This document shows positions 16,221 to 27,295 of a stretch of DNA of 64,000 bases, one piece after another (position 1 is the first letter of the stretch; each line of letters opens with the position of its first letter). Made by a program: the position numbers and the translations under genes. This DNA is from Patescibacteria group bacterium (GTDB lineage Bacteria; Patescibacteriota; Patescibacteriia; UBA9570; JAHJKD01): the NCBI GenBank assembly GCA_043798935.1, contig JAZDOC010000019.1, positions 74,322 through 138,321 of the forward strand, given 5' to 3'. Below the pieces are notes generated by a model. It was not told the DNA's origin. It did no database searches and saw only the letters and a program-made list of their open reading frames with translations.

Positions 16221-17705
16221 ATGCATTTATCTGATTACCAAAAGTATCGCATTTTAGAAATTTTACCGGGTTTTACAGTGTGGTTTACGCTGATTGCAGT
16301 TTTTGTTTTGTCATTTATTGAACCATTACTCATGATTTATTTTATTATTGCTTTTGATCTGTATTGGTTGATGCGAGTTTTTTATTTTATTTCTTATTTG
16401 GGTTATTCATGGTATCGCTATCGCAAGGAAGATAAAATAAATTGGTTAAATAAAGTTAAGACTATAAATAACTGGGAAAACATTTATCATTTAATTTTTT
16501 TACCAACATATGGTGATGATGTAAGTATTTTGGAAACAACCTTTGCAGCCTTAGTTAAAAGTGATTATCCATTACAGAAATTTATTATTATTTTAGCCGG
16601 TGAAGAACGCGAAGGCCAAGCTTTCAATAATCGCGCTAAAAAAATTCAGGAAAAATACAGTTCATATTTTTATAAGTTCATAATTACAATCCACCCTAAA
16701 AATCAATTTGGCGAAGTTGCTGGCAAAGGATCAAATATTAATTATGCCGGTCATTTAGCACAAAATTATATTGATAGTTTAAAAATAAAATATGAAAATG
16801 TTATAGTATCCGCATTTGATATCGACACTTGTGTCAGCCGACAATATTTTAGTTATTTAACTTACAAATATTTAACTCACCCAAACCCCACTCATGCCAG
16901 TTATCAACCGCTGGCTTTATACAACAATAATGTTTGGGAATCACCTTCATTTACAAGAGTAGTTGCAAACTCAACAACTTTTTGGTTAATGACCGATCTT
17001 GCTCGACCCGAACGTTTATTTACTTTTTCTTCCCATAGCATGAGCTTTAAAACATTAGTTGATGTTGGTTTTTGGCAGAACGATATCGTAACCGAAGATT
17101 CCAGAATATTTTTACAATGTTTTATCCATTATGACGGTGATTATCAAACCGTGCCCATGTTTGTAACCGTTTCAATGGATACAGCCTATAGCGGTGATTT
17201 ATGGGGTACAATAAAAAATCAATACAAACAAATTCGACGCTGGGCGTGGGGAGTGGAGCATTTTCCGTTTATGTTCTGGCATTTTATTAAAGCCAAAAAA
17301 ATACCGTGGTCTAAAAAAATGAAATACATGTTTAATTTAACTGAAGGAATGTATTCGTGGGCGACTGCACCACTTTTAATTTTAATTCTAGGTCGATTGC
17401 CTTTATGGGTTTCAGCTCAGCAAGAAAAATCCGGCATCATTACGCAAACAGCGCCTCACATATTACAATGGTTAATGACAGCTGCTATGCTAGGAATTTT
17501 AGCATCGGCTATTATGAATGTTTACTTTCTTCCTAAACCGCCAAAAAAATATAAAAGCTATAAAATTTTAATCATGCTTTTACAATGGATATTACTACCA
17601 ATCACTATAATTATTTTTGGTTCCATACCAGCGATTGATGCTCAAACACGCCTTATGTTAGGCAAATATTTAGGCTTTTATACTACTAAAAAACTTAGGA
17701 AGTGA
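16221..17705 (+). CDS. processive family-2 glycosyltransferase (cellulose/chitin-synthase-like beta-glycan synthase)
   Basis: 494 aa. N- and C-terminal TM bundles flank a GT2 domain carrying DxD (FDIDT), TED (VTEDSRIF) and Q(I)RRW (QIRRWAWG) motifs. Confidence 0.7.
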   Translation: MHLSDYQKYRILEILPGFTVWFTLIAVFVLSFIEPLLMIYFIIAFDLYWLMRVFYFISYLGYSWYRYRKEDKINWLNKVKTINNWENIYHLIFLPTYGDDVSILETTFAALVKSDYPLQKFIIILAGEEREGQAFNNRAKKIQEKYSSYFYKFIITIHPKNQFGEVAGKGSNINYAGHLAQNYIDSLKIKYENVIVSAFDIDTCVSRQYFSYLTYKYLTHPNPTHASYQPLALYNNNVWESPSFTRVVANSTTFWLMTDLARPERLFTFSSHSMSFKTLVDVGFWQNDIVTEDSRIFLQCFIHYDGDYQTVPMFVTVSMDTAYSGDLWGTIKNQYKQIRRWAWGVEHFPFMFWHFIKAKKIPWSKKMKYMFNLTEGMYSWATAPLLILILGRLPLWVSAQQEKSGIITQTAPHILQWLMTAAMLGILASAIMNVYFLPKPPKKYKSYKILIMLLQWILLPITIIIFGSIPAIDAQTRLMLGKYLGFYTTKKLRK

Positions 17706-18539
17706 TTTCTCATACCCACATTTAAAATCATCCCAAGACATTTCCTTTTTACCCTCAGGTTGAATAATGTCTATTTTTAAAATATTATTTTGAATATGCG
17801 CTTTTTTTATTTTGAAACGTTTGTCATTGTATATAAAATATATACCAGGCCATTCTTTGTAAGCTCTTAATTTATTTATAATTGAAACTGACTTATCGTT
17901 GAATAAATCAATGCGGCCATCTTGTTTCTTTATTATTTTACATATAGAAGCATCTTTTTGGTTTTGTGGTTTTGGCAAAATTTTGCGTTCACAATATAGC
18001 TCAATATTATCTAATAATATTTTTACTCCCATTTCAGCTAATTGCTGATGCAAAGAAGTGTAGTTGTCATCAGCCGATATATTGATCTTTTTTTGTGAAA
18101 TAATCGGACCGGCGTCCATTTTTTTATCGAGAAGCATTAAAGATACACCAGTTTCAAAATCATCATTCGCTAAAGCGCTCTGAATAGGGGACGGACCGCG
18201 GTATTTGGGTAATAATGATGGGTGAATATTTAATATACCAAATGGAAATAAATTTAAAATATCTGATTTTAAAATTTGTCCATAAGAAACCAAGATACCT
18301 AAATCTGCCTGATAATCTCTAAAATCACTAATTTTAAGTTTAGATGGTTGAATTAATGACAGATTATTATTTATTGCTATATTCTTTATAGGTGAGGCAA
18401 CTAATTCTTGTTTCCGTCCCTGTGGTTTATCGGGCTGAGTTACAACTAAACAAATATCGGCATTATTATTTATTAATGCTTCTAAAAAGGGAACTGCAAA
18501 TTCAGACGTTCCAAAAAAAATAATTTTTTTATTTATCAT
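17670..18539 (-). CDS. fmt: methionyl-tRNA formyltransferase
   Basis: Formyl-transferase N- and C-domains (IIFFGTSEFAVPFLEAL...; ILNIHPSLLPKYRGPSPIQSAL). Start moved to MINKKIIFFG (Met 18 of the track ORF). Its 3' end overlaps the convergent GT2 gene by 36 nt. Confidence 0.9.
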   Translation of the reverse strand: MINKKIIFFGTSEFAVPFLEALINNNADICLVVTQPDKPQGRKQELVASPIKNIAINNNLSLIQPSKLKISDFRDYQADLGILVSYGQILKSDILNLFPFGILNIHPSLLPKYRGPSPIQSALANDDFETGVSLMLLDKKMDAGPIISQKKINISADDNYTSLHQQLAEMGVKILLDNIELYCERKILPKPQNQKDASICKIIKKQDGRIDLFNDKSVSIINKLRAYKEWPGIYFIYNDKRFKIKKAHIQNNILKIDIIQPEGKKEMSWDDFKCGYEKSLPKFFSSIKA

Positions 18540-18993
18540 TATCTTGAGCTTTATCAATAAAAAGAATTCCGTGTAAATGATCGATCTCATGTTGTAAAAC
18601 CCGTGCTAAAAAACCTTTGGCTTTAATATGAATTTTTTCGCCATTTTTATCTAGTGCTTTAATTCGAATTTTTTCTGCACGTTCTACATTTTTAAAAATA
18701 CCCGGTAAAGATAAGCAGCCTTCCTCCATAACCACAGTTTTTAAACTTAAATCAGTAATACGAGGATTAAATAAAACTAAATGGTCAGATAATTTATCGG
18801 CTTCTTTGCTAATAACGATTAATTGAATATTAGAGCCAACTTGAGGAGCGGCTAAACCAACGCCATCTTTTATAAGCATGGTTTCTGTCATATCCAAAAC
18901 CATTTGCTGATATTTCACAACATCATTTTTATTAACTTTATCTGATATTTTTCGTAAAATCGGATTTGGATTTTTAATTATATCTAATATCAT
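18529..18993 (-). CDS. def: peptide deformylase
   Basis: 154 aa with the three PDF motifs GVGLAAPQVG, EGCLSLPG and HEIDHLHG. Classic def-fmt arrangement. Confidence 0.92.
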   Translation of the reverse strand: MILDIIKNPNPILRKISDKVNKNDVVKYQQMVLDMTETMLIKDGVGLAAPQVGSNIQLIVISKEADKLSDHLVLFNPRITDLSLKTVVMEEGCLSLPGIFKNVERAEKIRIKALDKNGEKIHIKAKGFLARVLQHEIDHLHGILFIDKAQDNDK

Positions 18994-19027
18994 ATTTAAG
19001 TAATTCTATTAAAAATAATTATAAAAG

Positions 19028-20515
19028 TCAATTATTTGTTTCTTTGAAAAATTGTTTAACTCTAATTTCTTGTTTAAAAAAATTTTCATAATTATTAGCA
19101 ACAGCCCATTGAATAATTTGATTATCAGGTGAATTGGTTTGAATAATTAATTTTATATTTGTGTTGACCAGTTTTCTAATTAACTGAAAAACACGTTCCG
19201 ACGCTAATTCATCAGCTGCAGCTAACTGATGATCTACTGATAAAATGCTGATTAAGTCAAATTTAATCTGATGTAAAAATTTTAAAACAAATTCGGTTCC
19301 CAAGCAAATATCGCAATCATTAATTTCTTGAATATTAAATTCGGTTTCTTTAGTTAATTCAATTATCTTTTTGTATGGAAATAATTTAATTAAATCTTGC
19401 TTTAATTTAGTTGTTCCAAAAACAATTTTTTTTAAATTTAAACTTTGACAACGCGGACAATGCAAAATAGTTGTTGAGGAAATAATCTCGCGGCAGTTTT
19501 GACATACAAGTAATTTTGCATACCCTTTGCGATTAAAAATCAACAACGATTTTTTACTAACATTTAAACTTTCAATTAAAGTATTAGAAAAAAATGAATA
19601 ATTCCCACCGATCTTTTCATTCTGCATATCCACAACTAGGCTCTGACTAGGTCTATTTCTGAACAATTTAATATTACGAAATTTATCATAAGAAGAAATT
19701 AGTGGCGCCTGGGATGTTAAGAGTATTTTATTTTTTAACTGCTCAGCAATTTCCAGCACATGATATTTAGGATTTTGATCGAAATTTTTATGAGACATAT
19801 CTTCTTCGTCATCGATAACTATCAATTTTAAATTCGAATATGGCAAAAAAATTGCATTTTTAGTGCCAATAATTAATTTAGTTTCCCCAGTCTTAATTTT
19901 TTGCCAAACTTGCCAATTTTCACTTTTCGATAGACCACTGCGATAAACAATTGGTGAAAACTTGTAAAAAACCGAAGCTAAATTATACGCTTGTTGAGTT
20001 TGTGGAACCACAATTAAAACTTGATTTTTGTTGTCGATCAGTCCTCTTAAAACAGCATTTTTTTCCGATTCATTATTATAATGCAACAAAATTGGTAATT
20101 TGCTACACTTTATTTTTTGAATTGCCATTTTAACATCACTAATTCTATTTTTACTAATTGTCTCAATTTTGGGATTAAATCTATTTGGCGTAAATGTACT
20201 TTTTTTGACTGGAATTTCCGGTAATAAAATTTTTACAGCCAAAGAAAGTGAAATATTATATTTTACAGCTAACCAATCGATTAAAATCATCTGCTCTTTA
20301 TTCAAACGCAAACGATCTTCCACTGCAATTATTTCTTTAACTTTTTTATAAGGACAAGTTTTTTTTATTTTGTAGACAACGCCAATTTTTTTGGAATTTC
20401 TAAAATTAATATATACCACATCGCCAATATTTAAATGCATGCTATCTGGAATTTTATAATCAAAACAACCAAATTTAGGAATGGTTCTGATTTTTGGAAT
20501 TATTTCAGCGTACAT
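19028..20515 (-). CDS. priA: primosomal protein N' (PriA)-like with degenerate ATPase motifs
   Basis: 495 aa. PriA 3'-DNA-binding N-domain (MYAEIIP...VVYINFRNSKKIGVVYKI), helicase-lobe blocks (VLIVVPQTQQA; GTKNAIFLPYSNLKLIVIDDEEDMSHKNFDQNPKYH) and zinc ribbon CQNC...CPRC. Walker A GxGKT is absent and DEEHD is replaced by DDEED. Confidence 0.6.
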   Translation of the reverse strand: MYAEIIPKIRTIPKFGCFDYKIPDSMHLNIGDVVYINFRNSKKIGVVYKIKKTCPYKKVKEIIAVEDRLRLNKEQMILIDWLAVKYNISLSLAVKILLPEIPVKKSTFTPNRFNPKIETISKNRISDVKMAIQKIKCSKLPILLHYNNESEKNAVLRGLIDNKNQVLIVVPQTQQAYNLASVFYKFSPIVYRSGLSKSENWQVWQKIKTGETKLIIGTKNAIFLPYSNLKLIVIDDEEDMSHKNFDQNPKYHVLEIAEQLKNKILLTSQAPLISSYDKFRNIKLFRNRPSQSLVVDMQNEKIGGNYSFFSNTLIESLNVSKKSLLIFNRKGYAKLLVCQNCREIISSTTILHCPRCQSLNLKKIVFGTTKLKQDLIKLFPYKKIIELTKETEFNIQEINDCDICLGTEFVLKFLHQIKFDLISILSVDHQLAAADELASERVFQLIRKLVNTNIKLIIQTNSPDNQIIQWAVANNYENFFKQEIRVKQFFKETNN

Positions 20516-20520
20516 AAATA

Positions 20521-21057
20521 TTATTCAGTATATCTCTTTACTAAAAATCGATATAAAGCTATTTGTTCTTTTTGCAGATTAATATATCCTTTTTGGGCAG
20601 TAATTTCTAATTGTTGGTCAACGGTATCAACTCCATCAAGCAAGGGGAGTAACAATGCAGATTTACGATTGTCTGGTGTTTGCATAAATATTCCATATTT
20701 CTTAGGATTTAATTTCTTAATATCCATAACTTGTTCTAATTCTCCTAAAACATCTACCGAAATATTTATATTACTTAATTCTGTTTGTTTTAAAGGTAAA
20801 AAACGCGGATCATAAAAAGCAGCCGAAACTGCATTATGAATTATTTCCAAAGCAACGCAAGACATTACCGGTTTGAATGTTCCGATACATCCCTGTAAAT
20901 CATGGTTAATATTATTATGCAAAGAAACAAAAACGCCAGCTTGTTTAGTCTTTAATTTACTTGGTACATCTTGCAAAGAAGACAAGGTCTTTTTATTCAC
21001 CAAATAATATTCAATGCTTTGACGCGCCAATTTGCAATAATCTAATTTTTTTTTCAT
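20521..21057 (-). CDS. AMMECR1-domain protein (AmmeMemoRadiSam system protein A)
   Basis: 178 aa with the AMMECR1 signature LQGCIGTF. Stop/start abut the Memo-like gene. Confidence 0.75.
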   Translation of the reverse strand: MKKKLDYCKLARQSIEYYLVNKKTLSSLQDVPSKLKTKQAGVFVSLHNNINHDLQGCIGTFKPVMSCVALEIIHNAVSAAFYDPRFLPLKQTELSNINISVDVLGELEQVMDIKKLNPKKYGIFMQTPDNRKSALLLPLLDGVDTVDQQLEITAQKGYINLQKEQIALYRFLVKRYTE

Positions 21058-21059
21058 GG

Positions 21060-21854
21060 TTAGCTTAAAACAAATTCTCCAACTAAATAACCAACGCCGA
21101 ATGGACCTTCATAAGATAATTTTTTAAATTTAAAATCCACTTTTTTTAATGCGCCGAGTAATATCAATAACGAACGATAGCCACATTCACCAGCCGACTC
21201 AATTAATTCTGGGCTGATTTTAACAATTTCATCAATTTTATTTTGTTCTAACAATTGAATAAGTAAATGATCAAAAGTTTGACCATTTGAATTAAATCCA
21301 CCTGGGGCGCTTTCAGACAAGCAGTGCGATAAATCTCCGGACGCAATAATAGCAATACGTTTATTGCTTTCACCGGCTACTTTTTGTAAAAGCATACCGA
21401 ATTTAATATGAGCGTTTTTATCGAGTAAGCTAAAACTAATAGGTATAATCTTAACATTGGGTAAATGTTGAGTAAGAAAATATAAAGGTACGCAAACGCC
21501 GTGATCAAGAATTGGTTGGCTGATAGTGTTGACGGCTACATTTTCCAGATCAGCTCGTTCTTTTATTTTGCTCATAAGCTCTAAATCACATTTCCAGGTC
21601 AATTCTTTTTCGTTTGAACCAAATTTAGAAAAATCACTTTTAAATTCAATAGCCAAATTTAAAGAAAAAGCTTCCGGAGTTATTAAGCTATGCGGGGAAA
21701 TTATAAAAATTATTTCCGGTTGCAAAACATATAAATCTCCTTCCATTTCATGAAATGCCGAGATTGTATCGCTTACCTTATTGGTTTCTTCTTTGCCAAT
21801 ATCAGGTATTAGAATTGGTGGATGCGGTGCTAGCCCGCTAAAAATAAAAGACAT
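21060..21854 (-). CDS. Memo1-like protein (AmmeMemoRadiSam system protein B)
   Basis: 264 aa with the Memo-family His/Asp blocks IISPHSL, LDHGVCVPLYFL and ASGDLSHCL. Confidence 0.75.
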   Translation of the reverse strand: MSFIFSGLAPHPPILIPDIGKEETNKVSDTISAFHEMEGDLYVLQPEIIFIISPHSLITPEAFSLNLAIEFKSDFSKFGSNEKELTWKCDLELMSKIKERADLENVAVNTISQPILDHGVCVPLYFLTQHLPNVKIIPISFSLLDKNAHIKFGMLLQKVAGESNKRIAIIASGDLSHCLSESAPGGFNSNGQTFDHLLIQLLEQNKIDEIVKISPELIESAGECGYRSLLILLGALKKVDFKFKKLSYEGPFGVGYLVGEFVLS

Positions 21855-21863
21855 ATGGATATA

Positions 21864-23289
21864 TTATTTTTTAGTTTTTTTCTTCTTGGTAGAAGGCAGT
21901 TTAACTGGTTTTCCTTTGTCGTGCAATTTTAATACTTGATCAGTAGTATGAATAACATTTTCCCATTTATACCCCAATTTATTAAATGCCTTGGCTGAAA
22001 CAAATGGTCTTTTTTTGCCTTTGTCGATTAGATAGACTGCATTACTACCAGGTGAAGTAACGATCTCACCATTAGCGAATTTAACTGGCTGTCCGTTAGA
22101 ATAAGAATTAATTTCCGATGCATCTTTAGGAAAAATAGTAACTCCTTTAAATTTACTGTCTAAAATTTCTTTAGACCAAATTTCTTGTTTTTTATTGTTT
22201 TTATTTATAAAAACAACTGCACCGGTTTGTTTATACTGAGCTAAAAATCCCACTGTTGTAACATCTTGTTCCATTATTAATTGACCATCAGGAATATTGG
22301 ATAAATCAGTCCACGAAGCTGGTAAAGCTTCTTCGGGATTATAGCCTAAATTTCTAAAAATTTCACGCGAAGTGATACCTCTTTTTTTTTCCGTCAATAT
22401 AAAGAAACATGGCGCCACTCGGAGCTTGAAGCAAAGTATAATTAGGGAATAAAATCGAAGCGCCCACATCGTATTGATCAAGTACGTTTTCATTGACGGC
22501 AATGGTTTTATTAATATCATAATTAGCCATTAAAGCGCCTAAAGAATTAAAGGCCATTTTCTTGTTATTCTTAATCAGATAAGTTATGCCACTATCCTGA
22601 CTTTTAAGTATTGAACCACTGGGATATTTATTAATTTCACTGTTAAAACCAAACCACTTTTTCCAAATATCCCAGAATAAAGAATTTCCGCCCACACTAG
22701 AATTTCCACCATGATATCCAATCCAGGGGGTATAAGTATAAAGCACGGCTGTAGCCTGATTGGCTGGTGTCACAGTCCCGTCACCGGTATTTTTAGTTAT
22801 GCCGATACCCCAACCAGATATAGTTGAATTTTTTGCGCTTAAATCAGTTAAATAGCTATTTCTAATTTTATTAGCGGCCGCATCAATTTGATTGGCAAAA
22901 CCAGCATATTCTCGGGAACAGCCGCCGCCATCAGGACAACCAAATCCTAAGGCCTGATCCAATAAACTATTAGTAACTGTTTTTCTAGTAACTAAACTGG
23001 CTTCTTTTTGTAATGTGGCTAAAATAAATTTCGGATTCAATACGTAACGTTGGCAGGAATTATATATAATTTGTGCAGCCGATTTAGTTTTGCCGTCAAT
23101 GTCTTTAGTTGAATAATTGGCTAAAACACCATTTTGTGTTTTTAAAAAATCTGATATTCGACTAAGCGTCATATCGTTTTTATCAGTGAGTTCAGCCGTG
23201 GTTAATATATTATTTTTATTAAAACTACTAGCCAGAGAAACTACTGGAAAAATGAAAATCAAAATTAATAATAAATATTTTTTCATCAT
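21864..23289 (-). pseudogene. secreted hypothetical protein gene split by a frameshift in an A9 homopolymer (two overlapping ORFs, 22363..23325 and 21864..22520)
   Basis: The N-terminal ORF has a signal peptide (MMKKYLLLILIFIFPVVSLASS). It ends ...FLYIDGKKKRYHFA* just after the A9 run, while the -1 frame continues ...TEKKRGITSREIF... for 175 more aa. One fewer A would give a single ~475-aa ORF. Confidence 0.5.
22382..22390. repeat. T9/A9 homopolymer tract at the frameshift site
   Basis: cTTTTTTTTTcc on the + strand, which is GGAAAAAAAAAGAGG on the coding strand. It coincides with the frame switch between the two overlapping ORFs. Confidence 0.9.
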
Positions 23290-24302
23290 AAAATAATGTC
23301 TAATGTTTGCCCACATTTTGGACACGATCCATTGATAAAAAAACAGGCTGTTTCATAGTTCTTACGATTAATAACTACTGTGCCACATTTAGGACAATGC
23401 GTATTTTCTAAATCTTCATCCCAAACATTACCGGCATAAATATTTTTCAAGCCGATTTTTTTTCCGCATGCAATTGCATCTTTAATAGTATTAATTGGGG
23501 TAGGGAATAGATTTTGCAGTTTATAAGATATTTCAGGTGAAAACCTGGAAACATGCCATGGAGTTTCAGCACCAAGTTCATTAAATATAAATTCGACTAT
23601 TTTACAAAAACCACCGCTTCTTTCGGTAATATCAGGAATTACTAACGTTGTTACTTCAACCCAAACACCTTGTTGTTTTAAATATTTTAAATTATCAAGT
23701 ACGGGCTGTAATTTGGCTCCACAAAATTTAGAATATAATTTATCATCAAAAAATTTTAAATCAATATTAATAGCGTCCAGATATGGAATTATTAAATCAA
23801 GCGTTTTTTTACTCATAAATCCATTAGAGACCCAAATGTTTTTTAAATTTTCCTGTTTAGCTAGCCTCATTACGTCAAGAGCAAATTCTAAAAAAACAGT
23901 AGGTTCAGTATATGTTGCTGCAACGCTATCGCAATTATTTTTTTTAGCTTCATGGACAATTTGTTCAGGAGTTCTATCTTGACCAATAATGCCGCCTTTT
24001 TGTAATTTTGGATACTGAGAAATTTGCCAATTTTGACAATTGTCACAACGTAAATTACACCCCACAGTCGCGTAAGAATACGTTTGCGAACCGGGTAAAA
24101 AATGAAAAAAAGGTTTCTTTTCGATTGGATCAACGGCTTCGGAAACAACTTTACCATATACCAAACTAAATAATTTTTGGTTAATATTTTGCCGAACACC
24201 ACAAAACCCAGCTTTATTTTCACTAATAAAGCATTCGTGTGCACATGTATGACACTGAACTTTATTTTGATTAAGTTTTGTATATAACAATGATTCCTTC
24301 AT
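23286..24302 (-). CDS. AmmeMemoRadiSam system radical SAM enzyme
   Basis: 338 aa. N-terminal Cys cluster (CHTCAHEC...C), canonical radical SAM CxxxCxxC (GCNLRCDNCQNW) and C-terminal CxxC pairs. Confidence 0.8.
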   Translation of the reverse strand: MKESLLYTKLNQNKVQCHTCAHECFISENKAGFCGVRQNINQKLFSLVYGKVVSEAVDPIEKKPFFHFLPGSQTYSYATVGCNLRCDNCQNWQISQYPKLQKGGIIGQDRTPEQIVHEAKKNNCDSVAATYTEPTVFLEFALDVMRLAKQENLKNIWVSNGFMSKKTLDLIIPYLDAINIDLKFFDDKLYSKFCGAKLQPVLDNLKYLKQQGVWVEVTTLVIPDITERSGGFCKIVEFIFNELGAETPWHVSRFSPEISYKLQNLFPTPINTIKDAIACGKKIGLKNIYAGNVWDEDLENTHCPKCGTVVINRKNYETACFFINGSCPKCGQTLDIIL

Positions 24303-24343
24303 CAGCTACATTATAGCCCAATTTTCGAGTATTTACAATAAAT

Positions 24344-25072
24344 TTACACTGCTATATCATAAGGCTCCTGTTCTTCTACTCCTCGTTCAATTTCATCACT
24401 TTTTTCAGCTTGATATTTATTGTTTTTTTCAAGTGTAACTGGTTGTTTTTTAACTTCACATTCCATAAAATGTAATTCAACTCCTTGCTTTTTTGCTGTA
24501 AAACCAAGCGTTGTTTCACGACCTTCAATCACTTGTTTGATTTCAACGATTTCATAGCCATTTACTTTCTCTTGTCCTGTAAAAGCATCTTTTAGTTCAT
24601 GTAAACAATTCTCTGAAACCATAAAATAATACCCATTACCACTATTTTTCTCAACTGGAGTCTCGTCATTAATGGTTTCACTCATAACCATAAATACTTC
24701 ATCTGGGTATTCATGCAATAAATCAGCAACCAAGTCCATTTCTGCATCGGTGAATGCATCGTCACCATGTAAATTCTCTTCAGCAGTGTCTACTCGATCA
24801 ATTGCACCGGCTTCAAAGAGACCAGTCTTCATTTCACGATCATGTTCAGCTTTCATTAAAGCCTTTATATGTTGAATATCGTTAGGAGTGAAATCGCGCA
24901 AGCTAACCTCATCACCATTATTTAAACGGCCTCTCTCCACGCCATTCTCACGCCATGTTTGAATTTTTGTTGCAAATTGTTCTGTATTATTTCCCTTGCG
25001 ATGTTCCACTGCTGCTTTTTCGAAAGCCATGGATTTTAAATTTGGATTGCTCATAAATTTTATTTTAATCAA
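24344..25072 (-). CDS. acidic hypothetical protein, compositionally atypical (GC-elevated)
   Basis: 242 aa, D/E/A/G-rich and K/N/I-poor, unlike neighbouring proteins. Sampled 60-mers at 24720-24960 are 42-48% GC against ~30% in the flanks. True start may be MSNPNL (25054). Confidence 0.5.
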   Translation of the reverse strand: MIKIKFMSNPNLKSMAFEKAAVEHRKGNNTEQFATKIQTWRENGVERGRLNNGDEVSLRDFTPNDIQHIKALMKAEHDREMKTGLFEAGAIDRVDTAEENLHGDDAFTDAEMDLVADLLHEYPDEVFMVMSETINDETPVEKNSGNGYYFMVSENCLHELKDAFTGQEKVNGYEIVEIKQVIEGRETTLGFTAKKQGVELHFMECEVKKQPVTLEKNNKYQAEKSDEIERGVEEQEPYDIAV

Positions 25073-25116
25073 TAATAATGTTATTATTATATCATAATAT
25101 AACCAATTTATGGAAT

Positions 25117-25806
25117 ATGATCGAATTAGTTAAAATTCTAGATATCAAAGTTCACAATCTCAATAAAGCTCAGATAACAGGCATTATTGAGGATTATTTA
25201 AAATCAAAAAAAACTCATTTTATTGCCACTCCTAACCCGGAAATAATTTTAAAATGCCAGCATAATTTCAAACTAAAAAATATTATAAATAATGCGGATT
25301 TAGCTATTCCTGACGGTTTTGGTCTATTAATCGCTTCAAAATTTAAAATCAAAACTAGAGTTTCCGGTGTTGATGTAATGACAGATATTATTAAGATTGC
25401 TGAACAAAAAAAGAATTCAATATTATTTATTATCAACCATAATGGCTTAACTCAAAAAGGGGATTTAGATAAAACTATTCAAAATAAATATCCAAATTTA
25501 TTGTATAAAATTGCTTTTTCTGATGAAAAATTGCTTTTTCAGCCATCTATTATTTTTGTCGGATTAGGCTGCCCGGATCAAGAATTTTGGATAAATGATC
25601 ATGCAAAACAATTTACTGAAGCTCGCATTCTAATGGGAGTAGGCGGGGGAATTGATTTTCTTTCTGGTAATCAAAAACGAGCTCCGAAACTTTGGCAAAA
25701 AATAGGGTTAGAATGGTTATGGCGCTTAATTCATCAACCCAATCGCATTTTAAGAATCATCAATGCGGTGATTATTTTTCCTATTAAAGCTTTAATAAAG
25801 AACTAA
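25117..25806 (+). CDS. WecB/TagA/CpsF-family glycosyltransferase (GT26)
   Basis: Blocks HFIATPNPEII, DGFGLL, VGLGCPDQEFWI and MGVGGGIDFLSGNQKRAPKLWQKIGLEWLWRL. Start moved to MIELVKIL (Met 14 of the track ORF). Confidence 0.8.
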   Translation: MIELVKILDIKVHNLNKAQITGIIEDYLKSKKTHFIATPNPEIILKCQHNFKLKNIINNADLAIPDGFGLLIASKFKIKTRVSGVDVMTDIIKIAEQKKNSILFIINHNGLTQKGDLDKTIQNKYPNLLYKIAFSDEKLLFQPSIIFVGLGCPDQEFWINDHAKQFTEARILMGVGGGIDFLSGNQKRAPKLWQKIGLEWLWRLIHQPNRILRIINAVIIFPIKALIKN

Positions 25807-25870
25807 TCTGCATTGCCAAATTTAACTAAATTTGATAATATTAGCCAATAATAAATTTTAATTTAAAATT

Positions 25871-27295
25871 ATGTCGGAAACAGTAGTTACTAGATTTGCT
25901 CCTTCACCAACCGGAAATTTACATATTGGTGGTGCCCGAACAGCGCTTTTTAACTATTTATGGGCCAAAAAAAATAACGGTAAGTTTATACTGCGCATTG
26001 AAGATACTGACCGAACCCGATATGATGCTCAAAGTGAACAATCTATTATGGAAGGTTTAAAATGGTTGGGTTTATCCTGGGATGAAGGACCGATTAAACA
26101 ATCCGACAGATTTGAAATTTATAAAAAATATGCCAGTCAGTTAGTTGAACAGGGGAAGGCTTATTATTGTTTTTGTACTCCCGAACACCTAGACATGATG
26201 CGTCAAATTCAGATGCAAAAAAATAGAGCACCCAGATATGACGGCTCATGCCGTAAACTGACTACGTCTGAAATTCAAGAAAAATTAAATAATAATAAGA
26301 AATTTGTTATTCGTTTAAAAGTACCGGAGCAGGGTATGATTATTATTAACGATTTAGTTCGCGGTGAAATCAATTTTCAATGCGCTGATGTTGATGATCA
26401 GGTGTTAATTAAATCTGATGGCTTTCCAACATACCATTTGGCTAATGTTGTTGATGATCACGAAATGGGTATAACACATGTAATTCGTGGAGAAGAGTGG
26501 ATACCGTCTACTCCTAAACATATTCTTTTATATCAAGCTTTCGGCTGGCAACCGCCACAGTTTGCACATCTTTCATTGTTTATTAATAAAGGTGGCGGTA
26601 AAATGTCTAAACGAGAAGGCGCAGTGTCATTACTTAATTATCGCGATCAAGGTTATCTGCCCGAAGCCGTAAACAATTTTATGGCGTTTTTAGGGTGGAA
26701 CCCCAAAAATGAAAAAGAATTTTTTAATTTAACTGAATTAATTAGTGAGTTTGATTTGCACAAAATTCATAAAGCCAACCCTATTTTTGATATTCAAAAA
26801 CTTGATTTTTATAATGGTTATTATTTACGTAAAAAAAATATTGATGAATTCTATGATTTAGCCAAGCCATATTTAAATTCGGAATATACAAGAGATGAAA
26901 AATATATTAAACAAATATTGTCTTTAGAGCAGGAAAGGGTTAAAAAACTTACTGATCTAAACGACATGATTGGTTATTTTTTTACCGACTCTCTACAATA
27001 CGATAAAACAATGTTAATTTGGAAAAAAGAAGCACCTGAAAAAATTAAAGATAATTTAATAAAACTAGCCACGGCTTTACAAAAAATTAATGAATCAGAT
27101 TGGTATAAAGAAAAAATTGAAAGTACAATTTTAAACTGGATTCAACAAAATAATTATTCTAATGGCGAAATTCTTTGGCCCATGCGCGTAAGTTTAACTG
27201 GTTTAAAGGCTTCACCTTCACCGTTTGAAGTTTCTAGTGTTTTAAAAAAAGAAAAATCTATTGCTCGTATACAAACGGCTATAAATTTGCTATAA
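25871..27295 (+). CDS. gltX: glutamyl-tRNA synthetase
   Basis: 474 aa. HIGH motif (PTGNLHIGGARTALFNY) and KMSKS (KMSKREG). Confidence 0.95.
   Translation: MSETVVTRFAPSPTGNLHIGGARTALFNYLWAKKNNGKFILRIEDTDRTRYDAQSEQSIMEGLKWLGLSWDEGPIKQSDRFEIYKKYASQLVEQGKAYYCFCTPEHLDMMRQIQMQKNRAPRYDGSCRKLTTSEIQEKLNNNKKFVIRLKVPEQGMIIINDLVRGEINFQCADVDDQVLIKSDGFPTYHLANVVDDHEMGITHVIRGEEWIPSTPKHILLYQAFGWQPPQFAHLSLFINKGGGKMSKREGAVSLLNYRDQGYLPEAVNNFMAFLGWNPKNEKEFFNLTELISEFDLHKIHKANPIFDIQKLDFYNGYYLRKKNIDEFYDLAKPYLNSEYTRDEKYIKQILSLEQERVKKLTDLNDMIGYFFTDSLQYDKTMLIWKKEAPEKIKDNLIKLATALQKINESDWYKEKIESTILNWIQQNNYSNGEILWPMRVSLTGLKASPSPFEVSSVLKKEKSIARIQTAINLL

Follow-up and report, generated by a model that had tools for sequence, protein, structure and literature searches.

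The present analysis concerns four genes on contig JAZDOC010000019.1 of a Patescibacteria group bacterium (assembly GCA_043798935.1), of which a stretch of 64,000 nucleotides (nt), hereafter the window, was studied and to whose positions all coordinates refer. The window is gene-dense with a G+C content of 32%, and between 17.6 and 25.1 kb its minus strand carries a co-directional string of open reading frames (ORFs) in the order orf242-rSAM-X-B-A-priA-def-fmt. Four of these genes lie within 3.8 kb: rSAM (23286..24302; 338 amino acids, aa), which encodes a radical SAM enzyme of the AmmeMemoRadiSam type; X (21864..23289), which encodes an exported protein and is broken by a frameshift; B (21060..21854; 264 aa), which encodes a TK2203-type LigB/Memo-superfamily protein; and A (20521..21057; 178 aa), which encodes an AMMECR1-family protein. 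Our results make it probable that this is a genuine AmmeMemoRadiSam-type set residing in a lineage-typical gene string, in which X is an old and independent exported cell wall enzyme whose gene is frameshifted here. The arrangement is typical of a large group of Patescibacteria, comprising Kerfeld-, Falkow- and Uhrbacteria-like genomes. A preliminary description of this DNA had recognized the AmmeMemoRadiSam set with a secreted-protein gene inside it, and this identification held, as did the coordinates and the minus-strand orientation of the three hallmark genes; however, neither of the two functions that it proposed for the embedded gene (substrate or partner of the system, or decoupling insertion) fits the comparative data, and both the frameshift in X and the pairing of X with B had escaped it. 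The tight spacing that it reported is likewise correct, since rSAM and X overlap by 4 nt while X and B, B and A, and A and priA are separated by 9, 2 and 5 nt, respectively, the remaining spacers of the string being 41 nt between orf242 and rSAM and 34 nt between priA and def, followed by an overlap of def and fmt. As it had also stated, the start of X, at 23289, overlaps the stop codon of rSAM, the TGA of rSAM and the ATG of X sharing the sequence ATGA (TTATGATG).

The assignment of rSAM and A is clear. The radical SAM enzyme scored 319.2 bits against TIGR04337 (cut-off 220), with residues 7-334 aligned to positions 4-329 of the 349-position profile, and 76 bits against the Pfam Radical_SAM model. 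Its CxxxCxxC motif reads C82-N-L-R-C86-D-N-C89, and the protein contains further cysteines in its N-terminal part (Cys17, Cys20, Cys24 and Cys34) and in a C-terminal CxxC...CxxC arrangement, all of which are invariant in the corresponding alignment (alignment A2). Protein A matched TIGR04335 over its full length with 116.9 bits (cut-off 99) and Pfam AMMECR1 with 134.7 bits. The public record of the contig names the two products 'AmmeMemoRadiSam system radical SAM enzyme' and 'AmmeMemoRadiSam system protein A', and the match lists (best 120 for each protein) contain several close relatives in which X, rSAM and A are carried on the same contig. The profile comparison suggested in the preliminary description was therefore unambiguous for these two proteins, but for B it yielded only a nominal pass (39.7 bits against a TIGR04336 cut-off of 26).

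The match of B to TIGR04336 is partial, covering residues 114-245, and the protein scored considerably higher against Pfam LigB (144 bits) than against Pfam Memo (51 bits) and far below the cut-off of the MEMO1 family model NF001987 (34 vs. 295 bits). The closest solved structure is that of TK2203 (5hee; E = 1e-17 over residues 51-255), and no Memo structure was matched when B was searched against the sequences in the PDB. Canonical Memo-type B proteins encoded between rSAM and A on two low-GC contigs (L127 and L149; surveyed loci are referred to by L numbers) reached 238 and 230 bits on TIGR04336, whereas the window B and its orthologues reached 20-40 bits, some of them under the cut-off, and B is not comparable in full length with the canonical Memo-type members of this family. 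Given the lenient TIGR04336 match, the preference for LigB over Memo and TK2203 as the best structural match, B is a distant member of the LigB/Memo superfamily; its earlier designation as Memo-like thus holds for the nominal TIGR04336 match, but the protein is LigB/TK2203-like rather than a canonical Memo. Nevertheless, the three genes lie together and B takes the position between rSAM and A; as this type of B is also flanked immediately by rSAM and A in L085, L089 and L097, it is a true occupant of the slot. All candidate active-site residues (H11, H55, H118, D174, H177, E223 and C224) are present in the window B, and its GECG motif combines what we take to be the Glu typical of LigB-type enzymes with the Cys typical of Memo. 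An F-G-D motif that is found in 91% of the B orthologues reads F-G-S in the window B (residue 80) and is also changed in its two closest relatives (V-G-F and F-A-D), with the seven His, Asp, Glu and Cys positions intact. A different kind of variation was observed in L060 (9377..10132), L067 (9273..10043) and L075, and also in L042, where a B-like gene directly follows X; the first three of these genes have lost all seven candidate residues (for example NDTHVDT in place of HHHDHEC), and the residue-less genes matched no NCBIfam model. Judging from their sequences, they may be decaying or may have become non-catalytic.

In the preliminary description the embedded gene was taken as a single ORF of about 475 aa. 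However, the span 21864..23289 comprises 1426 nt, which leaves a remainder of 1 on division by 3, and it is covered by two ORFs that do not share a frame, 22363..23325 (308 aa when started at the ATG at 23289) and 21864..22520. The frame is broken at a run of nine A residues (A9; 22382..22390, minus strand), located by alignment A1 and by the reading of the relatives, and a continuous protein of 474 aa is obtained only after removal of one A from this run. The 5' part of the gene (22363..23289; 308 codons up to a premature TGA) encodes the signal peptide, the catalytic domain with Glu96, the first repeat and the beginning of the second. The 3' part (21864..22381) is shifted to the +1 frame with respect to it and encodes the remainder of the second repeat, repeats 3 and 4 and a Lys-rich tail, which become part of the X product only if the frame is restored. 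The repaired protein found 231 homologues, of which the best 120 are nearly all between 440 and 614 aa long with 92-100% query coverage, and its residues 294-474 were matched by the 3' ORF in a phmmer comparison. Alignment A1 (28 sequences) is collinear through the frameshift site, at the motif D-G-K-K-R-G-I-T-S, and the closest relatives read GGAAAGAAAAGAGG or GGACAAAAAAGAGG there, with A runs that are shorter or interrupted and codons GGA AAG AAA AGA GG or GGA CAA AAA AGA GG (G-K/Q-K-R-G). Since alignment A1 is collinear and the A runs of the relatives are shorter, X in the window represents a conserved gene with an A8-to-A9 lesion, or an error at this position. Programmed frameshifting was considered and rejected, as X is one intact ORF in 83 of 83 surveyed related loci and none of the orthologues has the shift. 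With the additional A in an A8 tract, the encoded product ends after residue ~303 and would keep the catalytic domain and repeat 1, while it would lack repeats 3 and 4 entirely and repeat 2 for the most part.

Whether the organism itself carries this lesion bears directly on what it produces. The additional A might stem from an error in sequencing or assembly or represent a minority variant, in which case full-length X would be made from an intact operon, and we regard this as a serious possibility, albeit somewhat less probable than a real lesion. A single extra base in a homopolymer is the commonest consensus error, both sides of the break are conserved and free of stop codons, all 83 relatives have an intact X, and this X sequence is contained in one assembly only; the sole entry with 100% identity is the 308-aa fragment annotated in the source metagenome-assembled genome (MAG), representing one member on one contig. 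On the other hand, among natural frameshift mutations, too, slippage from A8 to A9 is the most frequent kind. None of the window's five further A9/T9 runs disturbs an ORF, a second split gene was not seen in this region, and the public record retained the 308-aa call, which is the only part of X annotated there, as a hypothetical protein. As a further alternative, transcriptional slippage could correct the extra A in part of the X mRNA. A second minus-strand A9 run is present at 21046..21054, where it forms codons 2-4 of the AMMECR1 gene (ATG AAA AAA AAA CTT) in frame; it is of the same slippage-prone sequence type as the run that breaks X.

In agreement with the preliminary description of a signal-peptide gene between rSAM and B, the N-terminus of X is hydrophobic and signal-like (MMKKYLLLILIFIFPVVSLA, followed by SS). 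An AlphaFold model of the repaired protein (predicted local distance difference test, pLDDT, 83.6; predicted template modelling score, pTM, 0.75) consists of this N-terminal signal-like segment, a helical domain spanning residues ~25-215 and four beta-rich repeats of ~60 residues each. The helical domain has a predicted lysozyme-like fold with a conserved catalytic Glu: Glu96, within the motif Q-K-E-x-S-L, is invariant in 84 of 84 sequences together with Q94, G115, G130, Q134 and F213, and D120 is conserved in 83 of 84. The motif A-T-A-x-L-Y-x-Y-T-P served as the search pattern, so that its invariance is due to ascertainment. A GxGCPD loop contains a Cys and a Gly that are conserved in alignment A1, although in the wider family Cys118 is found in only 51 of 84 sequences. 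The repeats gave weak matches to EccB in 10 of 28 family members, in addition to matches to a phage family. Searches of X against PDB sequences returned no hydrolase, and matches of the X-family profile to picornavirus capsid proteins in the same sequence set were at chance level (E ~0.7) and were discarded. The best reading of the model is that X is an exported peptidoglycan glycosidase-like protein with a GH73/lysozyme-fold domain and four PlyCB/EccB-like repeats that would bind peptidoglycan in the wall. The family appears to be without any curated model.

A scan of one genome per species revealed at least 592 confirmed X loci, from which the best 80 were fetched together with four from look-ups, and the window proteins were searched against all ORFs of the fetched loci. 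The most constant neighbour of X in this survey is B, its immediate downstream gene in 77 of 82 loci (75 of 79 under a stricter flank rule). X is preceded by clpB in 33 loci, by wecG in 7, by rSAM in 5 and by another gene in 29, and B is followed by priA in 25, def in 6, AMMECR1 in 5 or a different gene in the rest. Out of 73 loci, 12 contain the radical SAM gene somewhere upstream of X and 5 have it immediately adjacent, and AMMECR1 was nearby in 8 of 71. Thus, the constant partner of X is B and not the rSAM-B-A triad.

The same survey bears on the age of the interruption. One of the two earlier proposals holds X to be an insertion that decoupled the system, which we considered as a recent event splitting a previously uninterrupted cassette of this genome. 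It is true that intact rSAM-B-A cassettes are found elsewhere among Patescibacteria, including one in L085 with the same gltX...priA-fmt surroundings, so that an insertion of X must have happened at some time. However, as had been proposed as a check, the neighbourhoods of related genomes were compared for an equivalent embedded gene, and it recurs in L001, L002, L006, L013 and L165-L167, with the order rSAM-X-B kept in relatives whose X is 39-64% identical. Since this order is shared over such distances and the ATGA overlap is kept, the interruption is old. In addition, the base composition of X equals that of its neighbours, neither repeats nor mobile-element genes flank it, and the active-site set of the window B is complete. 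A recent, decoupling insertion is therefore scarcely credible, and X has instead long held the position immediately before B in this clade, whose compact string can be written as rSAM-(clpB)-X-B-(A)-(priA)-def-fmt. A second interruption of the cassette was observed in one subclade, where a gene for a polytopic membrane protein of 227-234 aa without Pfam match lies between B and AMMECR1 (L165, 12591..13274; L166, L167, L013 and L009). Many of the surveyed species-representative records with a wecG-clpB-X-B-def-fmt string (among them L010, L012, L015, L023 and L025) are MAGs labelled 'uncultured Gammaproteobacteria bacterium' (TPA_asm entries from binchicken/SRP co-assemblies); on strings typical of Patescibacteria, these names look like placeholders or mislabels.

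From the side of the radical SAM enzyme, the 80 metagenome loci closest to the window protein were fetched. Among these, L085 shows the order rSAM-B-A-priA-fmt without X, with gltX and an M23 peptidase gene upstream as elsewhere, L089 and L097 combine rSAM, a short B and A in the absence of X, and L086, L088, L090, L091 and L102 contain rSAM-B; L127 and L149 encode rSAM-Memo-A, and L125 from this metagenome survey carries rSAM-clpB-X-B. Hence the B slot of Patescibacteria-like genomes can be filled by a Memo-type as well as by a LigB-type protein, and the existence of rSAM-B-A without X indicates that the system works without it. A divergent LigT/2H-phosphoesterase gene (PF02834) was noticed just upstream of rSAM in about 19 Patescibacteria loci with and without X (L165, 7627..8172; L013, L166, L167, L015, L047, L085-L091, L102, L125, L006, L043 and L010), and no LigT gene was found in the 64-kb window. 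This context, which is more widely conserved than X, may bear on the substrate of the system (RNA or nucleotide ends).

These observations also allow the other earlier proposal to be judged, namely that the radical SAM enzyme acts on X or has it as a dedicated partner; X would then be translated in a coupled manner through the ATGA overlap and modified in the cytoplasm before export, comparable to the targets of anaerobic sulfatase-maturing enzymes. The overlap is found in the window and in L001, L002 and L006, rSAM adjoins X in L013 and L165-L167, and X has the conserved Cys and Gly of the GxGCPD loop. However, X mostly occurs without a nearby rSAM or AMMECR1 gene, rSAM being adjacent or even within reach in the small numbers of loci given above; where rSAM is present, clpB intervenes in seven of the 12 rSAM-bearing loci of the genome survey and also in L125. 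Moreover, Cys118 is not retained in the wider family, none of the X alignment columns is significantly associated with the presence of rSAM (best p = 1.6e-3; Bonferroni threshold 1.1e-4), and the radical SAM family is found in many other phyla without X (7993 matches; high-GC contigs). Together with the rSAM-B-A cassettes that contain no X, these results render a role of X as substrate or partner very improbable, and the idea can be set aside, which saves experimental effort.

A clearer coupling emerged among the products of the triad itself. Of the 15 loci with rSAM or A close by, 13 encode a B with all seven candidate residues, but this holds for only 6 of the 29 loci in whose examined flanks both genes are missing (Fisher p = 5e-5). 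The substitution H118Y occurs most often, and in three lineages none of the seven residues is left. Likewise, rSAM and AMMECR1 co-occur (counts 7/3/1/29; p = 5e-5). As the rSAM-positive loci are scattered over the X tree, rSAM was apparently present ancestrally and lost repeatedly. The tracking of rSAM and A by the integrity of B supports a catalytic partnership of B with these two proteins, whereas X keeps Glu96 also where B is absent or degenerate.

In view of the constancy of the X-B pair, we also considered that X and B might form a functional two-gene module, in which B, as a cytoplasmic protein, would be tied to the wall pathway of X, acting for instance on a compound derived from the wall or linked to a lipid carrier, and rSAM and AMMECR1 would be optional additions. 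This is in keeping with the position of B directly after X while the flanks vary, with its persistence beside X in most loci without rSAM or A, and with recurrent envelope-related neighbours (a wecG/tagA-type transferase, an M23 peptidase and a GT2 glycosyltransferase). Nevertheless, X is intact with Glu96 where B is missing (L011, L033, L073 and L076) and is also intact where B has lost all catalytic residues (L060, L067 and L075), B occurs without X in rSAM-B-A cassettes, and B has no signal peptide whereas X is exported. Furthermore, the active site of B erodes in the absence of rSAM and A, which ties its catalysis to these rather than to X. As the housekeeping genes def and fmt likewise stay in this block, its general synteny is enough to account for the pairing, and we consider a functional module of X and B unlikely, although it is the main rival to the reading favored below. 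An extension of the same idea, according to which B is functionally tied to the exported X and the AmmeMemoRadiSam enzymes of this lineage act on an envelope-related substrate (for example a polyprenyl carrier, a precursor of the wall or a product of its turnover), is based on the retention of the X-B pair in ~94% of species, even where rSAM and AMMECR1 have been lost, and on the recurrent wecG/tagA, M23 and GT2 neighbours. We hold it to be even less likely, but if true it would be the first concrete hint at a substrate of the AmmeMemoRadiSam system.

We therefore favor the interpretation that a genuine AmmeMemoRadiSam-type set and an independent wall enzyme share a gene string in this lineage. 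Accordingly arranged, the products would act in different compartments: the radical SAM enzyme, B and A would function together in the cytoplasm on a small-molecule or nucleotide/isoprenoid-type substrate, while X would be exported via the Sec pathway and work on the cell wall, either that of the cell itself or that of a host. The genes would be placed on one transcript as a result of genome compaction and inherited operon structure, and X would be functionally independent of the triad. A consensus scan of 17500..25900 detected 49 promoter-like sites (43.8 ± 7.8 expected by chance) and 4 terminator-like sites (3.8 by chance), so that both counts are at chance level and say nothing about the transcription units. 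Several points weigh against this interpretation. The enzymatic activity of X is predicted from the fold alone, and, the weak EccB matches apart, neither X nor 28 members of its family matched any Pfam or NCBIfam model at E <= 0.1, hydrolase models included. The frameshift is known from one assembly, on which the reality of the extra A depends. The absence of rSAM or A from a locus means absence within ~6-8 kb rather than from the genome, and the association tests treat the loci as phylogenetically independent, with the states scattered on the tree. The adjacency of X and B is the most invariant of the neighbourhood (94%) and is kept where both flanks change; an adjacency of such strength normally indicates a functional link, so that explaining this pair by mere synteny may be too dismissive, and it is the single observation for which our interpretation offers nothing beyond inherited operon structure. 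Finally, the ATGA overlap of rSAM and X is common to the window, L001, L002 and L006, and three long contigs (L165-L167) preserve the order rSAM-X-B-(membrane ORF)-A-priA-def-fmt with an X that is only ~39% identical.

The genes on either side of the set place it in a housekeeping context. Downstream, priA (19028..20515), def (18529..18993) and fmt (17670..18590) continue the same tightly spaced minus-strand string, and their order recurs in most related loci. The window priA encodes a short form of 495 aa with a TIGR00595 score of 174 bits, which is under the cut-off of 230, and PriA is 497-499 aa long in the closest relatives compared to 624-665 aa in other Patescibacteria loci; the helicase may thus be truncated in the clade of the window. 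Upstream, a gene for a wecG/tagA-family glycosyltransferase (25078..25806, plus strand; PF03808) diverges from the rSAM end of the string and forms the conserved upstream boundary of the block in relatives. Between this gene and rSAM lies orf242 (24344..25072, minus strand), a very acidic ORF of 242 aa that matched neither Pfam nor NCBIfam and, in PHROGs, only at the level of chance; its local GC content is higher (0.38) with a strong negative GC skew. In the closest relatives its position is empty and wecG adjoins rSAM, so that orf242 seems to have been acquired at the front of the operon in this lineage specifically.

The locus can be compared with several known systems, first of all with the AmmeMemoRadiSam system as named in NCBIfam. 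It resembles this system in that two of its proteins, the radical SAM enzyme and AMMECR1, score above the curated thresholds and a LigB/Memo-superfamily protein is encoded between them on the same strand with tight spacing. It differs from it in the non-canonical B protein, which scores 40 bits compared to ~230-238 bits for canonical ones, in the conserved 1.4-kb gene for an exported, hydrolase-like protein that separates rSAM from B, and in the fusion of the set into the priA-def-fmt housekeeping string. Our literature search found AmmeMemoRadiSam in incidental mentions only and no joint mention of AMMECR1 and LigB. Burroughs and colleagues reportedly discussed it as the Memo-AMMECR1-radical SAM system in 2019 and are said to have predicted a function in isoprenoid modification, with which an envelope-related substrate would agree. 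Their paper is cited in PMC7159879 and PMC7694686. The role of Memo, AMMECR1 and the associated radical SAM enzyme is a question that reaches as far as human MEMO1 and AMMECR1, and it is not answered by this locus; the comparative results do, however, give a cleaner view of which proteins are coupled. With respect to B, TK2203 from Thermococcus kodakarensis, a putative class III extradiol dioxygenase-like protein, shares the SGDxxH and C-terminal motifs, although the similarity amounts to only ~68 bits, and our data indicate that in Patescibacteria a TK2203-like LigB-type protein can replace Memo in the B slot.

For X, the closest structural relatives are GH73 N-acetylglucosaminidases and related lysozyme-fold hydrolases (LytB of S. 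pneumoniae, 7pj3; the tail-tip lysin of phage Andhra, 8ej5; Atl; and FlgJ), with which it is only 12% identical in the structural alignment. In contrast to members of the GH73 family it has no match at the sequence level in Pfam, NCBIfam or the PDB, and it may be a glucosaminidase, a muramidase or a lytic transglycosylase. Its repeats resemble those of the PlyCB/EccB type, including the wall-binding domains of the endolysins LysIME-EF1 and Lys170, but they are arranged in tandem in one chain instead of forming an oligomeric ring. X represents a predicted family of exported GH73-fold hydrolases with four PlyCB/EccB-like repeats, previously unmodelled and present in hundreds of Patescibacteria species. 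The lesion in the window, finally, has parallels in genes with poly(A) tracts. Frameshifts in such tracts are partly rescued by transcriptional slippage in endosymbiont genes, and the A9 tract of Thermus dnaX is a further example. As in these genes, a one-base change in length between A8 and A9 breaks an otherwise conserved X, and one A fewer or two more in the X mRNA would restore the frame; unlike conserved programmed events, the frameshift of the window is found in none of the relatives of X.

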